DNA of 29,806 nucleotides from Candidatus Coprenecus pullistercoris (lineage in GTDB: Bacteria > Bacteroidota > Bacteroidia > Bacteroidales > UBA932). The position numbers and the translations under genes were made by a program. The stretch is from positions 1 through 29,806 of the forward strand of contig DXAT01000041.1 in the NCBI GenBank assembly GCA_019116965.1. Direction: 5' to 3'. Position 1 is the first letter of the stretch. Each line of letters opens with the position of its first letter. Shown here one piece after another: positions 2,014 through 14,032 of the stretch. Below the pieces are notes generated by a model that made no database searches, was not told the origin of the DNA, and saw only the letters and a list, made by a program, of their open reading frames with translations.

Positions 2014-2694
2014 TTATAAGAGTATGTCCATCAGTTCCTGAGCGTCTTCCAGTGCTTCTTTGGCGTCCTGGAGGTCCTGCTCGAGATCTTCGTCAATGGT
2101 TTCATCGAATACATCCTTCAGGTCCTCCTCTATGCTTGTAGTGGATGTATTTCCGCTGTCATCGGATACCCTGTAGTAGGCGTAGATGTCAAAGGCAATA
2201 TCGAAATCTGCAATCTGGTCGATGATGCCGGTCTCGCCTAACAGGGCATAGCAGAAAGTCCAGTTGTAGCTGTCGCCTACGCTTGACCAGTTCAGCATTT
2301 TCTCCAAGTTTTCTATATTGACGAGTTTCATGTATATGCTTTCTCCGTCTGCATTCTTGATCGGATCACCCTGTGTGTCGTAGATCTGCAGTTCGAAATC
2401 CTCAGCCGATACCGATGAGGCCCAGGAATCCGGGAAATCCTTGATGACCTGAGCATATACGGATACATAGAGTTTGTCGTCTTTCACATAGAACTTGTAG
2501 GAGCCGTCCGGTACCGAGATGTAATCGTCTGCGTCATAAGTCTCGCTCTCTTCCGTGTCGGAGTTCTCATAGCAGATATCTCCGTAAAGCTCGACATCTC
2601 TGACGGCTACCTCTTTTGAGGTACCTCCTCCGCAGGATGTGGCAGCCATGACGGATGCGGCCGCCGCAATGATTGTGATAAAAGTTTTTTTCAT
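2014..2694 (-). CDS. Acidic lipoprotein, hypothetical.
   Basis: Signal peptide plus lipobox Cys (MKKTFITIIAAAASVMAATSCGGG). Highly D/E-rich C-terminal half. Confidence 0.7.
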   Translation of the reverse strand: MKKTFITIIAAAASVMAATSCGGGTSKEVAVRDVELYGDICYENSDTEESETYDADDYISVPDGSYKFYVKDDKLYVSVYAQVIKDFPDSWASSVSAEDFELQIYDTQGDPIKNADGESIYMKLVNIENLEKMLNWSSVGDSYNWTFCYALLGETGIIDQIADFDIAFDIYAYYRVSDDSGNTSTTSIEEDLKDVFDETIDEDLEQDLQDAKEALEDAQELMDILL

Positions 2695-2714
2695 CTTTAT
2701 TTAAATATTAAGTG

Positions 2715-4538
2715 TTAAAGTTGCTTTGCCTTTGTTATGTCGAATGATTCCGCACACAACCTCATCTCATTGTTGTATTTGATGCTGATCTGGTAGATTA
2801 TGGACGGATCCTTTTTCTTTTTCCCCTTCTTTATGATATTGCACAATACTGTCCGGTTGTCGGTATCCACATCGACAATCTCATATCCGATGATATCGCA
2901 GAACGGTTTGAGCCGGTCTGCAAAATCGGCTTGCCAATAAGATACTGTAGATTCGGTATAGAAGAAATCTTCGCACGAACCATTGTCTGTTGTGCTGTAA
3001 GCAATCTTTGATGCTTTGCTGGCATCTACCATGAATTCAAAGGGAGCGCGTAATGAATAGACGGTAATTTCCTTTGATATATTTTTCAATGTCGTGTTGT
3101 AGTCATTGATAGAATTCGTCTTGATGATAACTCTTTGCGAAATGTCAGGACTATAAGATAAAAGGCAGTAGTTGTCATTAAGTTCCATGAGCTGTAAGTC
3201 CTTGGAATCGCGCAGTGCAGAGGAAATAGAGCGCAGGATTTCCGAATCGCTTAAGTTCATTCCTAATTTGGTGGCTGTGGCTTTGCCCGAGTTTATTGAC
3301 TGCTTTATGTATGATCCGGCATCTACCTGATCGGAGCCGAAAATGGCTTGGCTCAATGTAACGGCCTGTGAGGCAATGGCTGCATTGATGCAGGAGTCTA
3401 CCGCATTCATCTGTTCCGAAGTGAGATATGCCTTGTGTTCATAGTTGGGAAGCTTTATTGACGGATTCTGTAGATAGTTTTTGAAACCATCCCAGTTCCT
3501 GATACTTATGTACGCCTGGTCTTCATCTGTATTGATGCACCAGTAAATATCGCCCTCTTTGCTGATTAGCGGATCAGAGTATCTATCGTCCAGTGTGAAC
3601 TTTTTGACGGTTTCAACCAGATATGCGGCTCCCTCATCGCTGATGTATGCTCTTTCAGTAAGATATTCATATTTTGGATTGTTCCTTTTGCTCAGGTTGT
3701 ACCCTTGCAGGCTTTCGAAATCGAAACCGTCCTTGAGGGACAATATAGCCATCCTGGCGTAGTTCCCGATGGTCAGACTGTCTTGTCTTATTGTATATCC
3801 GAGATTCAGCAGCTGCTCCTTGTTTATTTCCCCGGCAGCATATTTTCTTGACATCTCGGTGACGGCCGGTTTTGTAGAGGATTTTCTGGTCGTCTTGCTT
3901 ATCAGGACTCCGTCAATAAATTCGTATTTGTCGTTACCTATTATCCATGTTCCGGTAGGGATTCCTTCCGGGTTAAGGCTTCCCTTCACGGAAGTGGTCA
4001 TGCCCTCCCTGCCATATTTGTTCGGGCCGATGTATTCGTATGCGCCGGTCAATATTCCGTTGTCATAGTGAGCATTCAGCAGGACGGCTCCCCAAATGTC
4101 GTAATCTTCTAAGGAAATATTGTTTTTGACTTTGAAATCGCCATGTGGTATTCCTCCCTTTATGAAGTTTCCCGAAAAATTACATTGCATATTTACTGGA
4201 GTGTTGTTTAGACTTCCGGAGACTTTGCATGATGATGACGCCGCTCCATAGAGCCCGCCATTGGAAAATACCGCATCCAGTTTATATCTTACATCAAGAT
4301 TGCCCCAAAGTGTAAGGCGATTGAATTCATAAGATTCTTGTGCATTGATATTCAGGCTTCCGTCTTTGATGTTTGAACCGTTTTCTCCAATGATGTAATG
4401 ATAATTCGCTTTACCAGTAATAAGTCCGAGTGATGTGGCTTTGGTGTAAGTGACTGTGTTTTGTTTGCGTTGGGCAAAGGATGTCCCCAAGCACATCAGG
4501 CATGCAGTGCCGAGCAATAGGATTTTCTTCATTTTCAT
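2715..4538 (-). CDS. Secreted hypothetical protein (607 aa) with Gly-rich, MORN-like short repeats.
   Basis: N-terminal signal peptide MKMKKILLLGTACLMCLGTSFAQ. Long uninterrupted ORF. 20-bp spacing to the downstream lipoprotein gene suggests an operon. Confidence 0.75.
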   Translation of the reverse strand: MKMKKILLLGTACLMCLGTSFAQRKQNTVTYTKATSLGLITGKANYHYIIGENGSNIKDGSLNINAQESYEFNRLTLWGNLDVRYKLDAVFSNGGLYGAASSSCKVSGSLNNTPVNMQCNFSGNFIKGGIPHGDFKVKNNISLEDYDIWGAVLLNAHYDNGILTGAYEYIGPNKYGREGMTTSVKGSLNPEGIPTGTWIIGNDKYEFIDGVLISKTTRKSSTKPAVTEMSRKYAAGEINKEQLLNLGYTIRQDSLTIGNYARMAILSLKDGFDFESLQGYNLSKRNNPKYEYLTERAYISDEGAAYLVETVKKFTLDDRYSDPLISKEGDIYWCINTDEDQAYISIRNWDGFKNYLQNPSIKLPNYEHKAYLTSEQMNAVDSCINAAIASQAVTLSQAIFGSDQVDAGSYIKQSINSGKATATKLGMNLSDSEILRSISSALRDSKDLQLMELNDNYCLLSYSPDISQRVIIKTNSINDYNTTLKNISKEITVYSLRAPFEFMVDASKASKIAYSTTDNGSCEDFFYTESTVSYWQADFADRLKPFCDIIGYEIVDVDTDNRTVLCNIIKKGKKKKDPSIIYQISIKYNNEMRLCAESFDITKAKQL

Positions 4539-4559
4539 ATTCGATTAATTGTGAGTTGA

Positions 4560-4622
4560 TTGGTATATGCAAAGTTGCAAAAAGCGTCGTTTGGTTCAAT
4601 GGCCCTTTTTGGCCCTAATTCC
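4560..4622 (-). repeat. Truncated 3' part (~60 bp) of the X/20-mer repeat family. The 20-mer GGCCCTTTTTGGCCCTAATT (4601-4620) encodes the last 7 codons of the PD-(D/E)xK gene. A cAacTTTG -7-like box sits ahead of the 2715..4538 gene.
   Basis: About 55 bp align with 5680-5735 (tatgcaaaGttgcAaa...ggccctttttggccctaattcc). Confidence 0.7.
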
Positions 4623-5345
4623 TGCTTGGATGGTGGTAAGCAGGTATCTGAATCTGTCACCGTTCTTTGTAAGTGCGGTGATGGCAGTGTCGTCCCAGTG
4701 GCACAGGTAGCTGCCATGCAGCACGAAGTCCGGATGAGATCCGATGATTTTTTCAGAGATCTTTCCCCATTTCAGTAATCCGGGACCAATCCGATTCCCT
4801 TCATGTGTGGAGAATGCGCGATAGCTTACATCTGTACTGGGACCGTTCCAGTAGATTCTGTTGTTGGTGACGAGCAGGGCAACACCGTCGGTCATATTTG
4901 GGTAGCATTGATTCAAGGCCTCGATGCGGCGTATGTCTTTCCAGTAGTTGTACATAATGATATCTCCTGCGCCTTGGTTCTTAATGATCCGGCAACCTGT
5001 TTTCAAATCTTCTCCGAAACGGGAAGGTTGATTGATAACAGGGCATGTGGCATACTTAAATTCTACGGCGGCAAACCGGCCGTCTTTTTCCACCACCACA
5101 TCGATGGACAGGTCATTGTCCCATGGAAAATCTAAGCTCTCTTTTCCTACTTTCAGATGGCGGACGCATAATTCTTCTTTCGGCACGGCATACTCCATGT
5201 CCACTCTGTCGTAATGCTTCTTTTCTTTGAGCCACATGGTTATCCGCACCTGCAGGTCTCTTTCATTGAAGATGAGTTCCTTGTTGCTTTTCAGAAAATC
5301 CTCCAGGTCGCAACGCAGCAATGTCAACAGGTTGCTGTTTTTCAT
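4596..5345 (-). CDS. Stand-alone PD-(D/E)xK (restriction-endonuclease-fold) nuclease family protein.
   Basis: Motif SIDVVVEKDGRFAAVEFKY (D ... E-x-K with 13-residue spacing). Single-gene cassette bounded by the 20-mer repeats. Lower GC than the core genes. Confidence 0.65.
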   Translation of the reverse strand: MKNSNLLTLLRCDLEDFLKSNKELIFNERDLQVRITMWLKEKKHYDRVDMEYAVPKEELCVRHLKVGKESLDFPWDNDLSIDVVVEKDGRFAAVEFKYATCPVINQPSRFGEDLKTGCRIIKNQGAGDIIMYNYWKDIRRIEALNQCYPNMTDGVALLVTNNRIYWNGPSTDVSYRAFSTHEGNRIGPGLLKWGKISEKIIGSHPDFVLHGSYLCHWDDTAITALTKNGDRFRYLLTTIQAGIRAKKGH

Positions 5346-5398
5346 GTCGTTTAAAATTAAATGTGCAGGCGGACTCCTATCTCTGCCAATTTATTAAA

Positions 5399-5735
5399 AA
5401 GAAAGTGTGGAGCCGGTCCGTCTGTCTTTGAAGAGGTTCTGACAAAACCCGAATGTAGGCAGGCTGAACAATCCCCACACTCGTATCGATTGTGAGAATA
5501 CACAAGTCAATACAAGTGATGGTGCCGTCGTTGTCCTTACATTCGTTGAAACTGTCAGATTTCTTCAAAAGGACAGTGCGAAAACACTTTCACCAATATG
5601 TCCGCCACATGTTTTGTCACATGGCACTACAAATATACTAACTTTTTCCATAAAGCAGCACCTTGCAGGGATTGTTTCGTATGCAAATTTGCGAATATTT
5701 ATACAGATATGGCGGCCCTTTTTGGCCCTAATTCC
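5399..5735 (-). repeat. Full copy 2 of the ~330-bp noncoding element X plus the 20-mer (5714-5733). Candidate structured 5' leader or recombination module directly upstream of the PD-(D/E)xK gene.
   Basis: About 85-90% identity to 10966-11291 over ~330 bp. The reading frames of the small ORFs inside are not conserved between copies. Conserved hairpin ACTGTC-N15-GACAGT. Long-range helix AACAAUCCCUGCA/UGUGGGGAUUGUU on the minus strand. Confidence 0.8.
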
Positions 5736-6419
5736 GATTCAGGCAAGTATGGTGCAGTTCAAACATCAGCAGTCTGCAGGCATTTTGATATACCGTCGCC
5801 GGTCTTATGGATTATCGGTGTCTTTGGGGAGAGAAAAGGTATAAAACTTTTGGTACACCTCACTATCTGTAATCCGGTAATCGCCATAATGTGCACATAT
5901 TCAGCTGTTTGCTGCCGCAGCCTCATAACAGATACGGCGCTTTTTGCCTGGAATTCGCCTTAATACGGCCTTATCTGTTATGCAGATTTTGACATATGAT
6001 GCTAATATATAGTCATTTACATAAAGAATACAATAACAGATGCTAAGGTCTATTAGGTACGCGCCACGAAAATCCATCTGTCTACACCCCTGAAATCGGA
6101 TGCAACGGTATAATATGTAAGTGCGCGCACCTGATTTTGACAGATGTAATGGATAATCAGTTGGTTGTATTTGATGTAATATGCGCGTACTTTCCGTAAA
6201 TACACCGGCATAAGATGTCGTATGTGATGGATGTGGCAGGGAGGCAGGCTACAAGTCTTTTTGACCGCTTGCAGCCTGGCGCTCCACTCTCTGCCGAGGA
6301 CATGCTCTCTTGTATATGCTCCTTAGTGTGAGTAAGTTCCTATTTGCGACACAGGATAGGTCCCGCTGATATGGCCATGGACTTGGGCCCAGAGTCTTGT
6401 AAAGTGACAGCTGCGGAAT

Positions 6420-7067
6420 TCAGCGGAAAATGCCGAATTTAACAGAAGCGGTAACGCTGTCTCGGAAAGTCTGTCCACCTTTGTAGCGTTGATAATAAAA
6501 GAGGTGATATAAGGTACTGTTCCCTCAATTACGAAATCAGTGATTTCGCAATTAAATGGGTATAATTTTACTCTCCCCGTCAAGCATCTGAATTGGACAC
6601 ATAACCTGATACTTTTACAGCAGGTCAAAGACATACGGGCAAGGTATTGGCGCATGGTGCAATACATTGTGCCCCATTGGAATACCGCTATTTGCAGGAA
6701 GCCATTAAACTTGATGATTACGGCAAACACGGGGCTTTGGCAAACAATTTTACCGAAACCCTCCCTGCACCGGTATCTGGTGATTGAGCTGAAAGACACA
6801 GAGTTCATGCCGGAATATATCGGCAAGCTCAACTTCTACTGTTCCGCCGTGGATGATATACTCTGCCGTGAAGGTGACAATCGCACTATCGGCCTTTTGC
6901 TCTGCAAGACCAAGGACCGCATCAAAGCTGAATATGCCTTGCGCGATATTCAGAAGCCGATAGGGATTTCCGATTATGAATTGGGATAGGCTTTGCCGGA
7001 AGATTTTCGGGGGAGCCTGCCTACGATTGAGGAAATCGAAAACGAATTAGAGGCAAAACAATCCTGA
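6420..7067 (+). pseudogene. Degraded yhcG-like (DUF1016, PD-(D/E)xK nuclease) pseudogene. N-terminal region eroded, with an internal deletion and an in-frame TAG at 6987-6989.
   Basis: The 6540-6989 ORF carries LNWTHNLILL (N-domain motif) fused to YLVIELKDTEFMPEYIGKLNFYCSAVDD...TIGLLLCKTKDRIKAEYALRDIQKPIGISDYEL. The family C-terminus ALPEDFRGSLPTIEEIENELEAKQS continues in frame after the TAG, to 7067. Confidence 0.6.
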
Positions 7068-7353
7068 TATTCAGCAAAAATGTAGGAGAAAGTGGGTCAG
7101 TGGCGGTAGTCGCTGAGACCGAGATTCTTTCCCTTTTGGCTGCCATACCGAGCATGAGCATAATGTCCGGCTTCATGTACTGCAGTAAACCGGATACAAT
7201 TTCCGTTACTTTCCTGAAACTTACCGGTAACCGTACTGCCTTGACCCAATCTTTGAAACTGTCGCAGGATGCTGCCTCTGCGGCGACATCCCACGACAGA
7301 TTCCTGTCCCGGCCTCCGAACGGCTCAGATCCTGTAATCAATACCGATATCAT
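7021..7353 (-). pseudogene. pcp: Truncated pyroglutamyl-peptidase I (pcp) fragment. N-terminal ~85 residues are recognisable, then divergence or truncation.
   Basis: MISVLITGSEPFGGRDRNLSWD...LPVSF...KPDIMLMLGMAAKRERISV matches the Pcp N-terminus (VLLTGFDPFGG...NPSWE...PDIIICVGQAGGR..ITPERVAIN). The remaining ~130 aa are absent. The fragment overlaps the yhcG remnant convergently. Confidence 0.55.
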
Positions 7354-7448: not shown

Positions 7449-7793
7449 CTATGTATGCTTGGTCGTAAATCGTATAATTAAAATCATTATTAAAAGTAAT
7501 AATGCATTGACAATGATGTACAATGGTACAGAAAACTCAAAAAAAGCAAAGGTGAAATTAAGGACAAGCAGAATGAATAGAAAGATTCCACCAATAGTGT
7601 GCATGACAATACCGGCTCGCTCTGTATTGGCTTTTAAGGCAATAGTGAACAGGCCGGATACGACAAGTGCTATAAAAGTAGTAATCGTGGCAACCCATTT
7701 AAGGTCCTCAATTTTGACGATGCTGTATTCCCCCCAAGACAGTAATGCTGAGATGGCGACGGTGACTATTGTGTAGAAAATGTCTATTCTCAT
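7449..7793 (-). CDS. Small integral membrane protein (3 predicted TM helices), hypothetical.
   Basis: 114-aa ORF with three long hydrophobic stretches. Its start overlaps the stop of the upstream gene (7793/7795). Confidence 0.55.
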   Translation of the reverse strand: MRIDIFYTIVTVAISALLSWGEYSIVKIEDLKWVATITTFIALVVSGLFTIALKANTERAGIVMHTIGGIFLFILLVLNFTFAFFEFSVPLYIIVNALLLLIMILIIRFTTKHT

Positions 7794-7794
7794 C

Positions 7795-8124
7795 TCAATG
7801 TTTATTCAAGATTATTAATTTCATAATTTCAGGTATGAGTTTCGCCTGTGTCCAGCCGCTCATGCCTGGTTTCCACATTAAGGTGTCTTCTTTTATTTTA
7901 TAAGATGATACCAGTGTGTTTACTTCAGGCTCAGTAATGGGGCCAATCTGAACATTGTCCACGATAGCATAATATTGTGATTCTGTTTTTATGACAGGTG
8001 CTCCTGAACCAGGGGTTTGCATATTATCTATAACATGATTCATGGTCGCAATCATCTGCTGCGCGACGGCCATACTCATGCCGAACTCTAAAAGTCTGTC
8101 TAATGAATTAAACGAGTTGTCCAT
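7795..8124 (-). CDS. GYF_2 (DUF4339) domain protein. Paralog of the C-terminal domain of the SPFH protein.
   Basis: YYAIVDNVQIGPITEPEVNTLVSSYKIKEDTLMWKPGMSGWTQAKLIPEI parallels LAINGQQSGPFSIPQLQQLAQQGKINAQTYVWKPGMSEWIMAGQVDEL in the upstream gene. Confidence 0.65.
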   Translation of the reverse strand: MDNSFNSLDRLLEFGMSMAVAQQMIATMNHVIDNMQTPGSGAPVIKTESQYYAIVDNVQIGPITEPEVNTLVSSYKIKEDTLMWKPGMSGWTQAKLIPEIMKLIILNKH

Positions 8125-8144
8125 ATTGATTCAATTATGTTTGA

Positions 8145-9500
8145 TTATTGAGGCATTGGGGGCATCGGTGGTGGGGGAGGTGTGTTGGGTATAAATATGT
8201 TTTTAAGTTCATCGACCTGACCGGCCATGATCCATTCGCTCATGCCCGGCTTCCAAACATAAGTCTGGGCATTAATCTTTCCTTGTTGCGCAAGTTGCTG
8301 CAGTTGCGGTATGGAGAATGGACCGCTTTGTTGGCCATTGATTGCGAGCATATATGTCGGGATAGGTGGCGGGGGCGGGGTGTTCATGCCGTTTTGCATT
8401 GTCTGACCCATATTATTCATCATCCCTGCCATCTGACTGCCCATGGCTCCTCCCATCATCATGCCGGTCATCATTCCTGCGGCGTTCATGCCTCCTCCGT
8501 CTCCCATATAGCCCATGGCTCCGAGGTTTTCAGCTCCTGCCCGTAGGACACTAGCCTGCTGATCCAGTGCATGGGCCCCTATGAAATTGGTCTCAGTCTG
8601 CAGGCGTTGAGCACGCTGTGCTTCCTGTCGGTTGATACGCAAGGTCTCCTGCGTATTCTCTGCGTTTATAGCCTGTGTATCTGCCATATTCTTTATGCTG
8701 ACTTTGGTCTGTGCCTGGATTGTCTGCGCCTGTTGCATGGCGGTTACATGGCGGAGTTCCATATATCCATCGCTTTCTTTGTCTGGATCTATGCGGTTTA
8801 TATCCACTCGCTTGACATTTACGCCAAAATCTTCAGACAATTCCTTTGACAGCCGTTCTTGGAGAAGGTCTGATATCTCAGTTATTTTCCTTTCTATTTG
8901 CAGGACGGGGATGCCGTTGTCCTGAGGAGCGTTGCTGACAAATGACTTGACATATTTAGTGACGGCATCTTTTATTTGCTTGTTAAAATCTTCCAATGTG
9001 AAATTTATCATCCTGTTCAGCTTTATGAAAGCTTTATAGTCAGATATATTGAAAGTGATACTGCCTTGTACAGCCATCGGTACTGCGAAATCAAGAAACC
9101 GGGGATCAAATACATCAAAGAATGGAATTGTGAACTCGATTTGAATGTTTCGTGCAAGATTTATAAAATATATTTCCGCTTGGAAAGGAGACTCACCTCC
9201 ATAGGCTAAGCCTATAATGTTGGCCAAAACAGGAAAGTTTGCCGTTTCGATGGTCTCGTCATAAGGTCCTTCAATATAGTCTTGGAGTGTTCCGTCTTTT
9301 TGTTTGTACACAAAAACTGCCACTTCTCCGTCTTTTACCCTGAGGCTACTGCCAAAGCGGATGGAATTTTCCCTTGTGGTAGAATTTACATCTTGTCCTT
9401 CCGGTCTCCATTTCCAGACAAGATATTCTTTCTCATCACAGCGGATGACATTCATCATCCCCCCTGATTTTCCCTTTTTGCCAATTCCAAATAGTCCCAT
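8145..9500 (-). CDS. SPFH/Band-7 (Band_7_1, YdjI-like) domain protein with a Gly/Met-rich low-complexity linker, polyproline tracts and a C-terminal GYF_2 domain.
   Basis: N-terminus MGLFGIGKK...VIRCDEKEYLVWKW is typical of YdjI-type SPFH proteins. Coiled-coil Q-rich segment. GAMGYMGDGGGMNAAGMMTGMMMGGAMGSQMAGMMNNMG linker. TPPPPPIPT and NTPPPPPMPPMPQ tracts. Confidence 0.8.
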   Translation of the reverse strand: MGLFGIGKKGKSGGMMNVIRCDEKEYLVWKWRPEGQDVNSTTRENSIRFGSSLRVKDGEVAVFVYKQKDGTLQDYIEGPYDETIETANFPVLANIIGLAYGGESPFQAEIYFINLARNIQIEFTIPFFDVFDPRFLDFAVPMAVQGSITFNISDYKAFIKLNRMINFTLEDFNKQIKDAVTKYVKSFVSNAPQDNGIPVLQIERKITEISDLLQERLSKELSEDFGVNVKRVDINRIDPDKESDGYMELRHVTAMQQAQTIQAQTKVSIKNMADTQAINAENTQETLRINRQEAQRAQRLQTETNFIGAHALDQQASVLRAGAENLGAMGYMGDGGGMNAAGMMTGMMMGGAMGSQMAGMMNNMGQTMQNGMNTPPPPPIPTYMLAINGQQSGPFSIPQLQQLAQQGKINAQTYVWKPGMSEWIMAGQVDELKNIFIPNTPPPPPMPPMPQ

Positions 9501-9505
9501 GTTGT

Positions 9506-10342
9506 TTATATGCTCGGTTGGTTAAATAATGATATTAAAGCCTCTATGCCGCTTGATATTAGACATATCAGTAGGATTATGATTGTGACTTTCCATGCCC
9601 AGTGCAGGCGCTTGAACCATGCAAGAAAGCCAACCCCAATAACTTTTCGTTTAAATCTTGTGTAGTCATCAATAAACGGTTTGAAAATATCATCATTTTT
9701 GAAGCTGAGTTCTGCTTTGTTTATGCATTCCTGATATTTTTTCCAATATGCCATTCTGCATGGATCTGAGGAGTCTGTAATATGCGGCTTGGCGGATGTT
9801 AGAAAATCAAGCAAATCAGCCTTGGCATTTGGTATGGGAAAAGTCTCTATGATATTTATTCTTTTTTTTATATCCTCTACTTCTGATAATTTGTTTGATA
9901 ATTTTTCATAAGACATAGAGGCGTCAATGTTTAGGAACTCGTATCCGCAAGCTGTGCAAACAGGACTGAATGCTTTTACAAGGGCATTGCACTGAGGACA
10001 CCGGCGCACATCTCCGAATTTTTCAGATTTTGGAGCCGATAAATTAGACGGGGCGCTTTTTTTATTATTAATCTGGTTGTATTCGCTTAAGCGTGCATCA
10101 AGCACCATTTCAAATTCATCAAGGTCAATACCTTTTGCCTGGGCTTTTTTGAATAGTATTTGTTTTTCTTTTTCAGTTAAAGTACCGTCTATTATTGCGA
10201 GGTCAATGAGTTTTTCCATTTCTGCATCATAGAGTCCGGTCCGTGTTTGCGAGGATTGTGTTTTTCTCATTGTCATTTGTTGTGACGGAACTGAATTGAC
10301 CTCATCGTACAGTTCTTTAATTATATTTTTTAATGTAGACAT
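9506..10342 (-). CDS. Zinc-ribbon protein with an N-terminal TerB-like/co-chaperone-like helical domain and a C-terminal TM anchor.
   Basis: CPQCNALVKAFSPVCTACGYEF (C-x2-C ... C-x2-C). N-terminal LIDLAIIDGTLTEKEKQILFKKAQAKGIDLDEF. C-terminal hydrophobic VTIIILLICLISSGIEALISLF. Sits 5 bp upstream of the SPFH gene. Confidence 0.65.
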   Translation of the reverse strand: MSTLKNIIKELYDEVNSVPSQQMTMRKTQSSQTRTGLYDAEMEKLIDLAIIDGTLTEKEKQILFKKAQAKGIDLDEFEMVLDARLSEYNQINNKKSAPSNLSAPKSEKFGDVRRCPQCNALVKAFSPVCTACGYEFLNIDASMSYEKLSNKLSEVEDIKKRINIIETFPIPNAKADLLDFLTSAKPHITDSSDPCRMAYWKKYQECINKAELSFKNDDIFKPFIDDYTRFKRKVIGVGFLAWFKRLHWAWKVTIIILLICLISSGIEALISLFNQPSI

Positions 10343-10354
10343 AAGGATTATATT

Positions 10355-10915
10355 TTACAGCCAGGAAAATATTTGATCAAGTTGTCCCAATAGTTCAGAG
10401 TTGCCGGTCTTGTCCTTGATCATCTCACCCAAAAGTTGAAAATCAAGATATAGCTCTTTGCCGATACTCGGCAAAGACTGAGTTATATACTTGACATTTG
10501 ATGATGATGACAGGGCTTCTCTGGCAGTCATTGATTTGACAATATCTGTAATGTTTGTGAGTGATGTTGTTAGCTCAGCTAATTTCCCTGCAAGTTGAGT
10601 GACTTCTTTACCTAAGCCGTATAGTTCATCTATTGATGGCGAGGCACTTTTGTTTTCTGCATTATCTTCAAGATCAAAATAAGTGATATAGAAATTTTTG
10701 ATAATAGGACTGATTCTGATTGTTACATCAGCGATTTCTTTGCAGGTTTTTGCGGCATTGTCAATAATGTCAACCCCGCAGTCTTCTGGTAAGTCAAGAT
10801 TTTGCATTTTCTCAATTCGTTCTTCTGATTCTTCGCACCATTCTAATGACTGGGGGAAAGCCATTTGTTGGAAAGAGAGAATCATAACCAATGTTGCAAA
10901 AAGTGCTCTTTTCAT
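10355..10915 (-). CDS. Secreted hypothetical protein. First gene after element X copy 3.
   Basis: Signal peptide MKRALFATLVMILSFQQMAFPQS. 12 bp upstream of the zinc-ribbon gene. Confidence 0.6.
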   Translation of the reverse strand: MKRALFATLVMILSFQQMAFPQSLEWCEESEERIEKMQNLDLPEDCGVDIIDNAAKTCKEIADVTIRISPIIKNFYITYFDLEDNAENKSASPSIDELYGLGKEVTQLAGKLAELTTSLTNITDIVKSMTAREALSSSSNVKYITQSLPSIGKELYLDFQLLGEMIKDKTGNSELLGQLDQIFSWL

Positions 10916-10965
10916 TACTTTTAATTTTTAGGTCAGTCGGCTCCCAGGACTGACGGGCTTATAAT

Positions 10966-11291
10966 AAGAAAGTGTGGAGCCGGTCCGTCTGTCTTCCAAG
11001 AGGCTCTGACAAAGCCCGAACATAAACAGACTGAAACAATCCCCACACCTGTATCGCTTGTGATGAATACACAACCAATACGGGTGACGGTGCTGTCGTC
11101 GTCCTTACGTTCGTTGAAACTGTCAGATTTCTTGGAAAGGACAGTGCGAAAACACTTTCACCAATATGTCCGCCATGCGTTTCCGTGCATGACGCCACAA
11201 ATATACTAAATTTTCATGTAAACAGCACCCTGTGGGGATTGTTCCGCAGGCAAATATGGGAATATTATTGACAGCCTCCCCGGCCCTTTTC
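10966..11291 (-). repeat. Full copy 3 of the ~330-bp element X plus a 20-mer variant GGCCCTTTTCGGCCCTAATT (11272-11291). Lies between the hipT stop and the SPFH-module operon.
   Basis: Aligns with 5399-5735. Long-range 13-bp helix AACAATCCCCACA (11034-11046) / TGTGGGGATTGTT (about 11234-11246). cAtaTTTG -7-like box on the minus strand just inside the 20-mer. Confidence 0.8.
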
Positions 11292-11321
11292 GGCCCTAAT
11301 TTCGTCAAGCTTTGAGTTGTA

Positions 11322-12265: not shown

Positions 12266-12595
12266 TTATTCCTCCTTTTCTGTTATCGGTTCAACACCTA
12301 CAGCTCCTATGCAGTCCTTGCAGCAGGCCAGCAGCAGGGACATGCGGTCCCGTGCGTCAATTTTCCAATTCCTCTCAGCGATGTCAAGCAGCCAGCCTTC
12401 GGGAATCAGGCCGTCGAAAAAGGGAAACAGGACTTTGTCCCTATAGGGTCTGTCGGTCAAAGGCAGAGTAAGACTTATGGCCTCAGCCTTTTCTGATGTC
12501 AGAAATCCGCCGTCATACTGGAATGTGTAGCCGTTTTCATCTTCTGTAAGGATGCCGGCCCTCTCGCCGCGTAGATATACCGTCGCCTGTTTCAT
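12266..12595 (-). CDS. hipS: HipS-like protein (HipA N-terminal subdomain homolog). Antitoxin of HipBST-type systems.
   Basis: 109 aa, MKQATVYLRGERAGILTEDENGYTFQYD resembles the HipA N-terminus. 2-bp gap to hipT. 4-bp overlap with hipB. Confidence 0.75.
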   Translation of the reverse strand: MKQATVYLRGERAGILTEDENGYTFQYDGGFLTSEKAEAISLTLPLTDRPYRDKVLFPFFDGLIPEGWLLDIAERNWKIDARDRMSLLLACCKDCIGAVGVEPITEKEE

Positions 12596-12813
12596 AGATC
12601 ATCGGTGTTTTTGGAGAGAGGGACTGCGCCTACTTCGCTGCCGAATAGGTTGAGAATCAAGTTGACTTTGTCCAGTCGGAGAGTCTGTTTGCCCTGCTCC
12701 AGCTCCCGGACAAAGCGCAGGCCGACTCCGGATTTCTCCGACAGGTCTACCTGAGTCAGGCCGTATTGCTTGCGCATGGCCTTTACGTATCTGGATAAGG
12801 TTGTTTGCTGCAT
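12592..12813 (-). CDS. hipB: HipB-like XRE-family HTH transcriptional regulator.
   Basis: 73 aa, helix-turn-helix LTQVDLSEKSGVGLRFVRELEQGK. First gene of the hipB-hipS-hipT operon. Confidence 0.8.
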   Translation of the reverse strand: MQQTTLSRYVKAMRKQYGLTQVDLSEKSGVGLRFVRELEQGKQTLRLDKVNLILNLFGSEVGAVPLSKNTDDL

Positions 12814-12850: not shown

Positions 12851-13017
12851 CCAAAGATATCCCCGATAAGGTATAAAATACTTTAAATCTAATATGATTA
12901 TACCCGTTCAGGCGTATTGCCCCAAAAATACATCTTGCCCATAATGGTCTTGGAGATTGTCGAGCGGCGGGAAAAAGAGAAAAGCCCCTGGTGCCTTGTG
13001 GCGCCGGAGGCCTTTTG

Positions 13018-13090
13018 TGATCTGCTTGGGGCTCGAACCCAAGACCCCAACATTAAAAGTGTTGTGCTCTACCAACTGAGCTAGCAGATC
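13018..13090 (-). tRNA. tRNA-Lys (anticodon TTT)
   Basis: Reverse complement GATCTGC-TA-GCTC-AGTTGGTA-GAGC-A-CAACA-CTTTTAA-TGTTG-GGGTC-TTGGG-TTCGAGC-CCCAA-GCAGATC-A gives a perfect cloverleaf with anticodon UUU. CCA not encoded. Coordinates +/-1. Confidence 0.9.
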
Positions 13091-13136
13091 GGATTTGGAC
13101 GGCAAAAGTAAGTAAAAAGATTCAATGCGCAAAATA

Positions 13137-13170
13137 TTTGTGCGGTTAAGAGGTGGTTTTCCTATTTTTG
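13137..13170 (+). promoter_or_regulatory. Bacteroidetes-type promoter for the 13175 gene: -33 TTTG (13137-13140) and -7 TATTTTTG (13162-13169).
   Basis: Match to TTTG-N19-21-TAnnTTTG about 5 nt before the ATG. Confidence 0.4.
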
Positions 13171-13174
13171 CGGC

Positions 13175-14032
13175 ATGGAAGGATTTCAGTCGGAAGTACG
13201 GGATTTCGTACGGGAATGCACGGGCCGGGAGCCGCTGGTGCTTGGTGTGGCCGGGGCTGATGCTCCGGGTTTGTGCCTGACTGCGGACGGGAGGCTGGCA
13301 GTGGTGACGGTGCCATTGGAATTTTTCCGCCGTGGAGGTGCTGTAGGGGAACTGATAGCATTGGAGGAGGAACCGGTTGTGCGTCAGGCAGGAGACAGGG
13401 TCTTTCTGTATGAGGACCGATGGCGCAATGACGGTGCAGCCGTCAGGTCCATGCTGCGGACAAGAATGGGGCTGGGCTTCAGGGTGTTTGCCCGGAATTG
13501 CGAGGTGCTGGACCTGTCTCCGGAAACAGCCGCGGATTTTCTCAGGCGTAATCATATTTATGGTTCGGCAAGGGCCAGATACAGGCTCGGCTTGTTCCGC
13601 AGAAGGGCAACTGGTATGGCGGAGGCCGGAATGGATCAGACACCTGTGCTGGCGGCGGTGGCGACATTTTCATCCGGAATACGGAAGGAGGACGGTACGG
13701 TGTCCTATGAATGGGTGCGGTATGCCTCGGTCAGAGGGGTGAGGGTTACGGGCGGCATGGGGCGTCTGCTGGATGCTTTTGTGACAAGAGTCAGGGGAAA
13801 CGGTCCGGTGGATGTGATGACCTACGCGGATCTGGAGTGGTATGATGGCCGCTCGTACCGGCGGCTTGGTTTCGAGCCGTGCGGTGATCGGGCTCCGGTA
13901 TGGTTCATGTGCAGGGTAGGGAGCGGTGAGCGGCGGGTCTGTCATGGCAGTGGGGAGCAGACAGCGCCGGGGGAGGTGAGGATATGCAATCCCGGCAGCC
14001 GGAAGTATATTCTCCCGGTGCGGGATTATTGA
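13175..14032 (+). CDS. Hypothetical protein (GC-rich). Possible acyltransferase-like fold. Converges on clpC and overlaps it by 7 bp.
   Basis: 285-aa ORF with an upstream consensus promoter. No clear family. High GC means the ORF length alone is weak evidence. Confidence 0.5.
   Translation: MEGFQSEVRDFVRECTGREPLVLGVAGADAPGLCLTADGRLAVVTVPLEFFRRGGAVGELIALEEEPVVRQAGDRVFLYEDRWRNDGAAVRSMLRTRMGLGFRVFARNCEVLDLSPETAADFLRRNHIYGSARARYRLGLFRRRATGMAEAGMDQTPVLAAVATFSSGIRKEDGTVSYEWVRYASVRGVRVTGGMGRLLDAFVTRVRGNGPVDVMTYADLEWYDGRSYRRLGFEPCGDRAPVWFMCRVGSGERRVCHGSGEQTAPGEVRICNPGSRKYILPVRDY

Follow-up and report, generated by a model that had tools for sequence, protein, structure and literature searches.

Which cellular process is served by the five tightly packed open reading frames (ORFs) at positions 7449-10915, on the minus strand, of the window (the whole stretch of 29,806 nt from Candidatus Coprenecus pullistercoris analyzed here), and do these ORFs form a functional unit at all? 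A first-pass annotation had described them as a membrane module, compared them with the pspA-ydjGHI membrane-stress operon of Bacillus subtilis, and raised the possibility of a role in defence or abortive infection. The SPFH proteins, one of which is encoded in the locus, are universal, and their roles in bacteria are poorly understood; the YdjGHI/SamGHI system of B. subtilis is the only studied system in which a soluble SPFH protein is combined with membrane anchors. In this work, domain searches, structure models and comparison of the locus across species were used to choose between these readings. We lean, with moderate confidence and largely by analogy, toward an SPFH scaffold placed under the cytoplasmic membrane, encoded by a four-gene core conserved across Bacteroidota and comparable to YdjGHI/SamGHI.

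Results

Layout and composition of the locus

All five ORFs start with ATG, and the co-directional cluster was recovered at the coordinates first assigned to it (Table 1). The intergenic gaps from g1 to g5 are 12, 5, 20 and 1 nt; the first three agree with the annotation, and the fourth, given there as an overlap of 1 nt, differs trivially, the g5 gene starting 1 nt past the stop codon of g4. The GC content of the module genes (37-46%) lies below that of hipA, clpB, gyrA and the kinase gene (50-56%), which agrees with the placement of the cluster in a low-GC island. The repeat named element X, which was correctly placed next to g1, is ~82-86% identical to positions 5395-5736; only these two copies were found in the window, although the annotation had spoken of a copy 3. 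Element X marks the upstream edge of an exchangeable cassette of g1 and g2, and a TAnnTTTG-like motif, read in it by eye, is a possible promoter element.

Table 1. Genes, protein segments and repeat of the five-gene locus, in positions of the window.
Feature	Residues	Position	Strand	Length	Description
g1		10355-10915	minus	186 aa	ATG-started ORF; secreted accessory protein, putative Sec-type signal at residues 1-22
g2 (ZN)		9506-10342	minus	278 aa	ORF; bitopic membrane protein
g2 TerB-like helical hairpin (tentative)	38-96	10055-10231	minus		
g2 zinc ribbon	113-135	9938-10006	minus		CxxC...CxxC
g2 helical domain	140-213	9704-9925	minus		Conserved; FPIPN motif
g2 C-terminal TM helix	249-272	9527-9598	minus		
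g3		8145-9500	minus	451 aa	ORF; soluble SPFH protein
g3 Band_7_1 domain	43-239	8784-9374	minus		
g3 long helix	244-329	8514-8771	minus		
g3 Met/Gly-rich segment	330-372	8385-8513	minus		Conserved
g3 first polyproline tract	375-379	8364-8378	minus		PPPPP
g3 GYF_2 domain	383-432	8205-8354	minus		
g3 second polyproline tract	441-445	8166-8180	minus		PPPPP
g4		7795-8124	minus	109 aa	ORF; stand-alone GYF_2 protein
g4 N-terminal helix	5-36	8017-8112	minus		Met-rich, conserved
g4 GYF_2 domain	51-99	7828-7974	minus		
g5		7449-7793	minus	114 aa	ORF; small integral membrane protein
Element X		10962-11304			Repeat directly upstream of g1; 3' flank of the hipBA cassette

Conservation of the operon

The conservation of the module was assessed in 80 species loci, mostly from Bacteroidota and representing several orders of this phylum. 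Across this set, the core gene order ZN-SPFH/GYF-GYF-TM (TM, transmembrane) is kept together with its orientation and tight spacing. The GYF paralog (g4) follows the SPFH gene in all 80 loci, the small TM protein of the g5 family is present in 73, and the ZN protein (g2) in 69; in 56 of the 80 loci the ZN gene immediately precedes the SPFH gene. The median intergenic gaps of the core operon are 13.5, 21 and 4 nt, the last of these separating the GYF and TM genes. Because order, orientation and spacing are conserved in 80 species, the arrangement is non-random, far beyond chance; the alternative that unrelated small genes merely came to lie side by side, with no functional module, is refuted by the same conservation over several Bacteroidota orders, and its probability is practically nil. 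Judged by gene arrangement, the five genes of the window are a real operon, in which g2-g5 represent a widespread and uncharacterized four-gene core of Bacteroidota. The annotation of a genuine membrane-associated module is thus supported by co-inheritance across the 80 loci.

The SPFH-GYF_2 protein g3

The SPFH and GYF_2 assignments of g3 held up in searches with hidden Markov models, in which the protein scored 83.3 bits against Pfam Band_7_1 (PF13421, cut-off 24) and 73.8 bits against GYF_2 (PF14237, cut-off 25.8), both far above the thresholds. A hydrophobic or TM segment was looked for in g3, and none was found. In the AF2 model, an SPFH alpha/beta fold is followed by the long helix, with a core pLDDT of 82-92, and Foldseek matched this model to stomatin, prohibitin (PHB), HflK/C, flotillin and QmcA at E = 1e-6 to 1e-4, and also to the GYF domain of GltJ.

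With the HflK/C-FtsH, prohibitin and QmcA-YbbJ cages among these matches, g3 could be viewed as an HflK/C- or prohibitin-like cage regulating a membrane protease or protein quality control, a view also suggested by the JGI name of its homologs, “membrane protease subunit, stomatin/prohibitin family”. We consider it quite unlikely, because g3 lacks the TM anchor of HflK/C, the operon encodes neither FtsH nor an NfeD-type protease or partner, the pyroglutamyl peptidase gene beside the module is lineage-specific and truncated in the window, and the JGI name is an automatic COG label rather than a tested function.

The Met/Gly-rich linker and the polyproline tracts of g3 had been regarded as unusual. 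On the contrary, the architecture of g3 is common, being found in at least 8000 homologs, and both the linker and the tracts are family-wide features: residues P375-377, G342, G346, G350 and G354 are invariant across the family, and two proline runs occur in 63 of 78 orthologs. The GYF domain is present in 43 of the 48 full-length representatives of the g3 clade, throughout which it is flanked by polyproline tracts, while in two representatives (P0248 and P0279) zinc ribbons replace or accompany it. The proposal that the tracts serve as GYF ligands is reasonable in view of the clade-wide flanking and of the precedents (binding by GltJ and a proposal of 2007, both discussed below); the contact is a predicted one, and the tracts are of low confidence in the AF2 monomer (pLDDT 41-49).

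The proteins g4, g5 and g2

The g4 protein proved to be a stand-alone GYF_2 paralog, as proposed: it scored 51 bits against GYF_2 (cut-off 25.8) and is paralogous to residues 356-439 of g3, i.e., the Met-rich segment and the GYF domain (BLASTP, E = 2e-11). The g4 protein of this genome is devoid of a polyproline tract.

For g5, which had been annotated with three TM helices, four are more likely: the profile of its family (74 sequences) contains four hydrophobic segments, so that g5 probably has four TM helices, and its charge distribution, a positive-inside pattern, fits an N-in/C-in topology. The g5 protein matched no Pfam, NCBIfam or PADLOC family, and neither an NfeD nor an OB-fold domain was found in it.

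In the annotation of g2 as a zinc-ribbon/TerB-like protein, the zinc ribbon was confirmed, and the TerB-like part is tentative. The zinc ribbon of the window protein itself scored 19.9 bits in Pfam, under the cut-off of 27; however, residues C115, C118, C129 and C132, forming two CxxC knuckles ~10 residues apart, are invariant in 49 homologs, and the zinc-ribbon model UPF0547 was matched by 49 of 50 family members. Strands are predicted at residues 112-123 in the AF2 model of g2 (mean pLDDT 82). Weak evidence for calling the preceding region TerB-like comes from low-scoring matches to TerB (PF05099) and TerB-like models, including a DjlA match of the window protein (E = 4e-4) and sub-threshold matches to TerB in 30 and to DUF533 in 43 of 50 family members. 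Only ~6 residues follow the TM helix of g2, a region that is highly variable across the loci, as are the accessory genes.

The exchangeable g1-g2 cassette

The g1 protein has a Sec-type N-terminus, in agreement with its annotation as secreted, and matched no Pfam, NCBIfam or PADLOC family; the cysteine pair C46/C58 is conserved in all three known g1 homologs. Homologs with 55% and 67% identity are encoded directly upstream of short ZN alleles of 63% identity (loci L090-L094), and g1 is absent from all 80 species loci (0/80). Thus g1, which had been counted among five members of the module, is a real partner of one class of ZN alleles and not a universal member: it is lineage-specific, is co-inherited with short-tailed ZN alleles only, and stands outside the universal module. 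No homology between g1 and the C-terminal domains of the long ZN alleles was detectable (hhalign probability 0.2%). The whole g1-g2 cassette is swapped between strains that are ~95% identical elsewhere.

Genomic neighborhood

In the window, the module lies in a region of lower GC, flanked on one side by hipBA (a toxin-antitoxin pair) and on the other by PDDEXK nuclease fragments, a setting that the annotation had called mobile or defence-like. An anti-phage or abortive-infection system, whose membrane complex would sense infection and kill or arrest the cell, would also accord with the exchange of the g1-g2 cassette between closely similar strains and the variable ZN C-termini and accessory genes, a pattern frequent in immune loci. 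Nevertheless, most of the evidence points away from such a role, which we hold to be very improbable. The five proteins yielded no PADLOC-DB v2 match (best E = 0.019-0.029, i.e., noise), and no effector domain (nuclease, protease, NADase or known pore-former) is present in the module. Among the 150 nearest neighbors of the module sampled from 80 species, only a handful match any defence model and none recurs more than twice, so no enrichment is seen; neighbors differ between species and, in other genomes, often belong to the housekeeping class, as do thrS-infC-rplT, argS, dxs, alaS, groES and lpxK. A close homolog was found in 1 of 50,697 phage records, on two IMG/VR contigs and on 0 plasmids. 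The hipBA genes and the nuclease remnants are lineage-specific, whereas the position of the module beside a Ser/Thr kinase gene, seen here and in other Bacteroidales, is stable across families of this order. The module therefore adds no new defence system.

Stomatin-type SPFH proteins regulate channels, and an SPFH/GYF complex that gates or clusters an ion channel or transporter is another reading of the locus. It draws on an Ion_trans channel gene that the sister lineage has two genes downstream of the module and on Castor/Pollux-RCK-type K+ channel genes, which make up 3 of the 150 neighbors, the K+ channel family (634 aa) being found at four Flavobacteriales loci (L052, L054, L071 and L079). 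Such genes, however, are adjacent to the module in a small minority of loci and never belong to the conserved core, and the window has lost the channel gene but kept the module whole, which makes this reading unlikely.

Discussion

Proposed function of the module

What is set out here for a submembrane SPFH scaffold, namely its protein-protein contacts, oligomeric state and physiological role, is what we infer from the features described above. As in other SPFH proteins, the SPFH domain of g3 and the ~85-residue helix would be expected to mediate assembly into rings or cages. Having no TM segment, g3 is unable to serve as its own anchor. Presumably the bitopic g2, with its cytoplasmic head of tentatively TerB-like, zinc-ribbon and helical domains, and the putative four-TM protein g5 bring it to the cytoplasmic side of the membrane and would thus play for g3 the role that YdjG and YdjH (SamG and SamH) play for YdjI (SamI). 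The GYF_2 domain of g3, bracketed by the two polyproline tracts, may bind tracts of neighboring protomers or its own in cis and thereby promote or gate assembly. In turn g4, a copy of the g3 tail without the SPFH domain that is probably translationally coupled to g5, could compete for or bridge GYF-polyproline contacts at the membrane. The allele of the window has the predicted secreted protein g1 in place of the post-TM region of ZN; g1 and this region would jointly represent the envelope-facing and input-specific part of the system. The likely output is membrane organization or surveillance, such as of envelope stress, rather than immunity directed at nucleic acids.

A bolder version of the scaffold reading, which we put forward as rather unlikely, is that the ZN-SPFH/GYF-GYF-4TM module is an undescribed transmembrane surveillance machine of Bacteroidota. 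In it, a conserved cytoplasmic SPFH cage, with its assembly switched by GYF-polyproline contacts and by a competing GYF-only paralog, would be linked to an input module open to exchange, comprising the ZN C-terminus and variable secreted or lipoprotein accessories such as g1. Recombination between strains would swap this module under diversifying selection, imposed at the envelope by, for example, phages, bacteriocins or host factors.

The clean exchange of the partner cassette among near-identical strains amounts to a natural experiment that could show where the system faces the environment, and the scaffold reading predicts that GYF-polyproline contacts, titrated by the GYF-only paralog, control scaffold assembly.

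Comparison with known systems

The operon would represent a second, independently built version of the YdjGHI/SamGHI arrangement in gut and environmental Bacteroidota. YdjI, which we take to belong to Pfam Band_7_1 as g3 does, is likewise soluble and combines an SPFH domain, a low-complexity segment and, at the C-terminus, a small adaptor domain. In B. subtilis, YdjG and YdjH anchor the soluble YdjI, which consists of an SPFH domain, a low-complexity segment and a zinc finger (PMC8581546), and YdjH is a TPM-domain protein and YdjG carries an NTF2-like domain (PMC11237479), along with two zinc ribbons and a TM helix; a role as membrane stress sensor has been ascribed to the SamGHI complex (bioRxiv 10.64898/2026.02.06.704340). 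YdjI relies on membrane proteins from neighboring genes, including one with a zinc ribbon (PMC8581546; PMC11237479), and g3 is predicted to do so as well. The two g3-clade members mentioned above, with their zinc ribbons replacing or adjoining GYF, tie the family to the YdjI architecture.

There are also differences. The C-terminal zinc finger of YdjI is replaced in g3 by a GYF_2 domain flanked by polyproline; g2 has one zinc ribbon, a tentatively TerB-like region, a helical domain and a TM helix instead of the two zinc ribbons and NTF2-like domain described for YdjG; and in place of the TPM-domain protein YdjH there are a GYF-only paralog and a small protein of probably four TM helices. Since the published descriptions give YdjH as a TPM-domain protein and YdjG as one with an NTF2-like domain, g2 is unlikely to be a homolog of YdjG, and g5 of YdjH; no TPM_phosphatase match was obtained in the five proteins or among the recurrent neighbor families. 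Besides belonging to a different phylum, the operon is without pspA: no PspA was seen among the window ORFs scanned, and no PspA family was matched by two or more of the 150 nearest neighbors. PspA recruitment, the output in B. subtilis, may therefore not apply here. Thus, the initial comparison with pspA-ydjGHI is valid for the logic of a soluble SPFH protein with a zinc-ribbon membrane protein, and fails for pspA and the TPM-domain protein.

The SPFH-NfeD pairs (QmcA-YbbJ, stomatin-NfeD and flotillin-YqiJ/YuaF) share with the locus an SPFH gene located beside a gene for a small polytopic membrane partner, QmcA being also a fold match of g3. However, g5 is unlike the partners in these pairs in its domain content, NfeD being unmatched in g5 and in the other module genes, and g3 lacks their N-terminal membrane anchor.

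The combination of SPFH/Band 7 and GYF domains was already listed in 2007 by Balaji and Aravind in their paper on the RAGNYA fold, which also noted the proline-rich flanks and neighboring TM proteins and proposed the GYF-polyproline idea (PMC2034487). That report covers the architecture only, from a planctomycete, and not the four-gene operon, the GYF-only paralog, the ZN family or the cassette variation. The sole solved sequence relative of the GYF_2 domain considered here is that of GltJ from the Myxococcus gliding machinery (PDB 7z3c, E = 6e-7). Micromolar binding of a proline-rich sequence has been shown for a bacterial GYF_2 domain, and zinc ribbon (ZnR) and GYF domains often act together (PMC11135422). 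In GltJ, the GYF domain binds a proline-rich sequence (GltJ-AglZ), and ZnR and GYF are parts of one membrane-associated system, as in the locus described here. Whereas GltJ contains a ZnR-linker-GYF switch, in our case ZnR and GYF reside on separate proteins, GYF is joined to an SPFH scaffold protein that also contains the candidate proline-rich ligand, and the carriers are mostly non-gliding gut Bacteroidales. If the proposed scaffold reading is true, the operon would provide a second functional context for bacterial GYF_2 domains besides Myxococcus gliding.

Organization of the five-gene module

The source of the window is a chicken-gut MAG (Rikenellaceae, Bacteroidales), of which it represents a contig in full (29,806 bp). 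The first-pass annotation described five tightly packed co-directional genes, and the corresponding open reading frames (ORFs) were indeed found (see table): a secreted accessory protein (g1), a ZN-family protein with a zinc ribbon and a TerB-like region (g2), an SPFH protein with a GYF_2 tail (g3), a GYF-only paralogue of this tail (g4), and a small transmembrane (TM) protein (g5). They lie head to tail on one strand, with gaps of 12, 5, 20 and +1 nt. Opposite-strand ORFs across g1-g5 were rejected as shadow frames that nothing supports. The GC content of the five genes is 37-46%, and that of hipA, clpB, gyrA and the kinase gene is 50-56%. A scan for sigma-70 promoters and terminators was uninformative, as Bacteroidota promoters differ from the sigma-70 model; the single terminator-like site, within g1, is below chance expectation.

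Features of the window
Feature	Position	Strand	Product	Remark
Ser/Thr protein kinase gene and gene for ~190-197 aa	105-1975	+		kinase with one predicted TM helix
Three packed genes	2014-5345	-	249, 607, 226 aa	co-directional with the module
Decayed genes on the downstream side	6540-7353			truncated pyroglutamyl peptidase gene (pcp) and YhcG PDDEXK-nuclease fragments
g5	7449-7793	-	114 aa	ORF, ATG start
g4	7795-8124	-	109 aa	ORF, ATG start
g3	8145-9500	-	451 aa	ORF, ATG start
Met/Gly-rich segment of g3	8385-8513		aa 330-372	14 Met and 13 Gly in 43 residues
g2 (ZN)	9506-10342	-	278 aa	ORF, ATG start
g1	10355-10915	-	186 aa	ORF, ATG start
tRNA-Lys(TTT)	13017-13090	-		just past 12879

Conservation of the operon

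At least 8000 homologues of g3 share its Band_7_1 plus GYF_2 architecture. A locus scan with one genome per species yielded 312 confirmed loci, and the best 80 of these were used for counting; their labels are mostly Bacteroidales, Flavobacteriales, Cytophagales, Chitinophagales and Kapaibacteria, with Firmicutes in two. All 80 loci have a GYF-only gene directly behind the SPFH gene in gene order, 73 have a member of the small TM family and 69 a ZN gene, usually directly 5' of the SPFH gene; g1 occurs in none. The median gaps are 13.5 nt (ZN-SPFH), 21 nt (SPFH-GYF) and 4 nt (GYF-TM). The data show the anatomy and conservation of the operon, and a chance juxtaposition of the genes is excluded. 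Near-identical module loci (L006, L018) come from assemblies with Oscillospiraceae and Lactococcus garvieae labels, for which binning contamination is the likely cause. One homologue in the cluster (P0436) carries a Spirochaetaceae label.

Domain architecture of the encoded proteins

The SPFH and GYF_2 assignments proposed for g3 and g4 hold in Pfam: g3 scores 83.3 bits with Band_7_1 (cut-off 24), and GYF_2 scores 73.8 bits in g3 and 51 bits in g4 (cut-off 25.8). No hydrophobic segment is present in g3, and one is found in g2 (aa 249-272), about six residues before the C-terminus. The zinc ribbon of g2 scores under the Pfam cut-off, but none of its four cysteines varies among 49 homologues. 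The N-terminus of g1 is of the Sec type, and two cysteines of the protein form a conserved pair. Neither g1 nor g5 was matched in the PADLOC, NCBIfam and Pfam scans. A word-indexed homologue search with g5 matched only two proteins, and its family was gathered by clustering the ORFs of the 80 loci. The resulting profile of 74 members contains four hydrophobic segments, with a positive-inside pattern that fits an N-in/C-in orientation; g5 is therefore probably a 4-TM protein rather than the 3-TM protein initially proposed.

The Met/Gly-rich linker and polyproline tracts of g3, originally regarded as unusual, proved to be family-wide. An alignment of 20 sequences shows hardly any variation in the Met/Gly segment, with its glycine-zipper-like pattern GxxxGxxxGxxxG (G342, G346, G350 and G354), or in the prolines on both sides of the GYF domain; two proline runs are present in 63 of 78 orthologues. 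The segment is more likely a functional element, either membrane-interacting or self-associating, than a spacer. Among 48 full-length sequences that represent the wider clade (to ~34% identity), 43 have a C-terminal GYF domain, mostly bordered by proline runs; in one, zinc ribbons take its place, and one combines a zinc ribbon with GYF. The SPFH plus GYF architecture, with its proline-rich flanks and TM-protein neighbours, has been on record since 2007 (PMC2034487). Since g4 aligns with g3 residues 356-439 (E=2e-11), it copies both the Met-rich segment and the GYF domain; its Met-rich N-terminal helix, related to the g3 segment, carries a motif conserved between species, RLxEFGMxMAxAQQM. Candidate proline-rich peptide ligands for the GYF domains of g3 and g4 are NTPPPPPIPTY and NTPPPPPMPPMPQ.

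Exchange of the g1-g2 cassette

The most intriguing feature of the operon is a strain-level exchange of its 5' cassette. Common to the ZN proteins is an N-terminal stretch of ~200 aa made up of a TerB-like hairpin, a zinc ribbon and a helical domain that bears an invariant FPxPN motif; one TM helix comes next, and then a post-TM part of 0 to ~220 residues, often TPR-like. In a sister lineage (L082-L084, L095-L100), the SPFH-GYF-TM genes are ~94% identical to the window at the DNA level and hipBA is 95% identical, whereas unrelated DNA stands in place of positions 9504-10961, which carry g1 and g2. This replacement encodes two or three small or mid-sized proteins (82, 82 and 369 aa, or 82 and 359 aa) and a long ZN allele of 427-442 aa, which has only the first 128 residues in common with g2 (55% identity). 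One breakpoint precedes the g3 start codon by 3 nt, and the other coincides with the edge of the repeat upstream of g1 (10962-11304).

Homologues of g1 (55% and 67% identity) were found in two other lineages directly 5' of ZN alleles that are 63% identical to g2 and are the only others of the short-tailed kind. The g1 gene is thus no intruder in the module, and the five genes represent a variant of the four-gene core. The possibility that g1 is a split-off C-terminal domain of the long ZN alleles was rejected, as neither phmmer nor hhalign detected similarity; that it substitutes for this domain functionally is speculation.

The repeat directly upstream of g1 (element X) constitutes the 3' flank of the hipBA cassette. 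Only two copies are detectable in the window (5395-5736 and 10962-11304). About 50 bp from the first copy, positions 5787-5833 match the hipB/hipA-N junction at 12574-12620, which makes this copy look like the remnant of a second hipBA locus from which the hipA genes are gone. Synteny with the sister lineage stops at 12879; beyond it, a 215-aa ORF (12908-13555) that overlaps the tRNA-Lys(TTT) gene is probably spurious.

Genomic context

In other genomes the genes that flank the module include thrS-infC-rplT, a pantothenate-kinase-like gene, argS, dxs, groES, alaS, tdk and lpxK. Among the 150 nearest neighbours from the best 80 of the 312 loci, the most frequent Pfam family was DUF6591, with six occurrences, and no PspA family was among those matching two or more neighbours. 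Only a few of these neighbours matched PADLOC models (PD-T4-3 and PDC-S26 in two each, AbiEii, PDC-S01 and PD-T4-6 in one each), and none of g1-g5 did. A close homologue was detected in one of 50,697 phage records (an unannotated metagenomic 'Bacteriophage sp.'), in two of 2.9 million IMG/VR contigs, and in no entry of the plasmid collection searched. The setting of the module is chromosomal and neither mobile nor defence-linked, contrary to what its surroundings in the window had first suggested. A role in defence or abortive infection, against which these context data speak and for which the operon offers no effector domain at all, is highly improbable.

Lineage-specific genes in the window are the hipBA pair, the truncated pcp gene and the YhcG fragments. 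The pcp product has 110 aa, compared with 191 aa in the sister lineage, and its gene abuts the YhcG fragments; in the sister lineage a 568-aa Ion_trans channel gene, deleted in the window, lies between pcp and YhcG. Ion-channel genes of the K+ Castor/Pollux-RCK and Ion_trans types adjoin the module in a minority of genomes, namely L052, L054, L071 and L079 (Flavobacteriales) and the sister lineage. This sporadic adjacency is the sole point in favour of a stomatin-like channel regulator, which we consider unlikely.

A membrane Ser/Thr kinase gene accompanied by a gene for ~190-197 aa is located beside the module in 17 of the 80 loci (including L002, L010, L013, L014, L046, L047, L056, L069, L072, L076 and L080); the kinase and 197-aa genes also adjoin it in the window, L085, L086 and L090-92. 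Across loci the pair occurs on either side of the module and on the opposite strand, and this proximity could reflect retained synteny or a functional link. Many flanking genes, among them those for lipoproteins and WG-repeat proteins, are co-directional with the module (87 of 117 upstream, 91 of 137 downstream), as are 26 of 27 genes inserted inside the core, so that variable accessory genes tend to travel with the operon. The 249-, 607- and 226-aa proteins of the window, none of which matched Pfam, NCBIfam or PADLOC, may belong to this accessory pool; homologues of the first two are encoded a few kb upstream of the module, co-directionally, in L001, L045 and L037.

Proposed mechanism and comparison with known systems

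An AF2 model of g3, built from a shallow 20-sequence alignment (mean pLDDT 65; unreliable over the first 100 residues, in the Met/Gly segment and at the polyproline tracts), shows an SPFH core with a helix of 85 residues. Its structural matches are the cage-forming proteins stomatin, prohibitin, HflK/C, flotillin and QmcA, together with the GYF domain of GltJ. Regulation of a protease in the manner of HflK/C appears rather improbable, as there is neither a protease partner nor a TM anchor. YdjI/SamI of B. subtilis, a soluble SPFH protein that combines a low-complexity segment with a zinc finger at its C-terminus, reaches the membrane only with YdjG, which has zinc ribbons and a TM helix, and YdjH (PMC8581546; PMC11237479), and the SamGHI complex acts as a membrane stress sensor (bioRxiv 10.64898/2026.02.06.704340). 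Micromolar binding to a proline-rich sequence is documented for a bacterial GYF_2 domain, and a switch function was proposed for ZnR-GYF pairs (PMC11135422). From these model matches and precedents we infer the protein contacts and physiological role of the operon: g3 would form a scaffold beneath the membrane with g2 and g5 as its anchors, and GYF-polyproline contacts would drive or gate assembly; g4, tightly coupled to g5, might modulate these contacts, and the variable part of ZN and accessory proteins such as g1 could provide envelope-facing input.

The operon is neither an SPFH-NfeD pair nor a known defence system, and is best filed as a solid, common and uncharacterized operon of Bacteroidota, no description or characterization of which was found in the literature searched. 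The likeness to YdjGHI noted in the first-pass annotation stands for the logic of the system, the comparison of g2, g3 and g5 with YdjG, YdjI and YdjH being made through published descriptions of the latter; B. subtilis YdjI, queried with an N-terminus derived from published primers, was not among the 150 best representatives. Although four traits that define YdjGHI/SamGHI are absent, namely a zinc-finger tail, a YdjG-type partner, a TPM-domain protein and pspA in the operon, the system would work in a similar manner.
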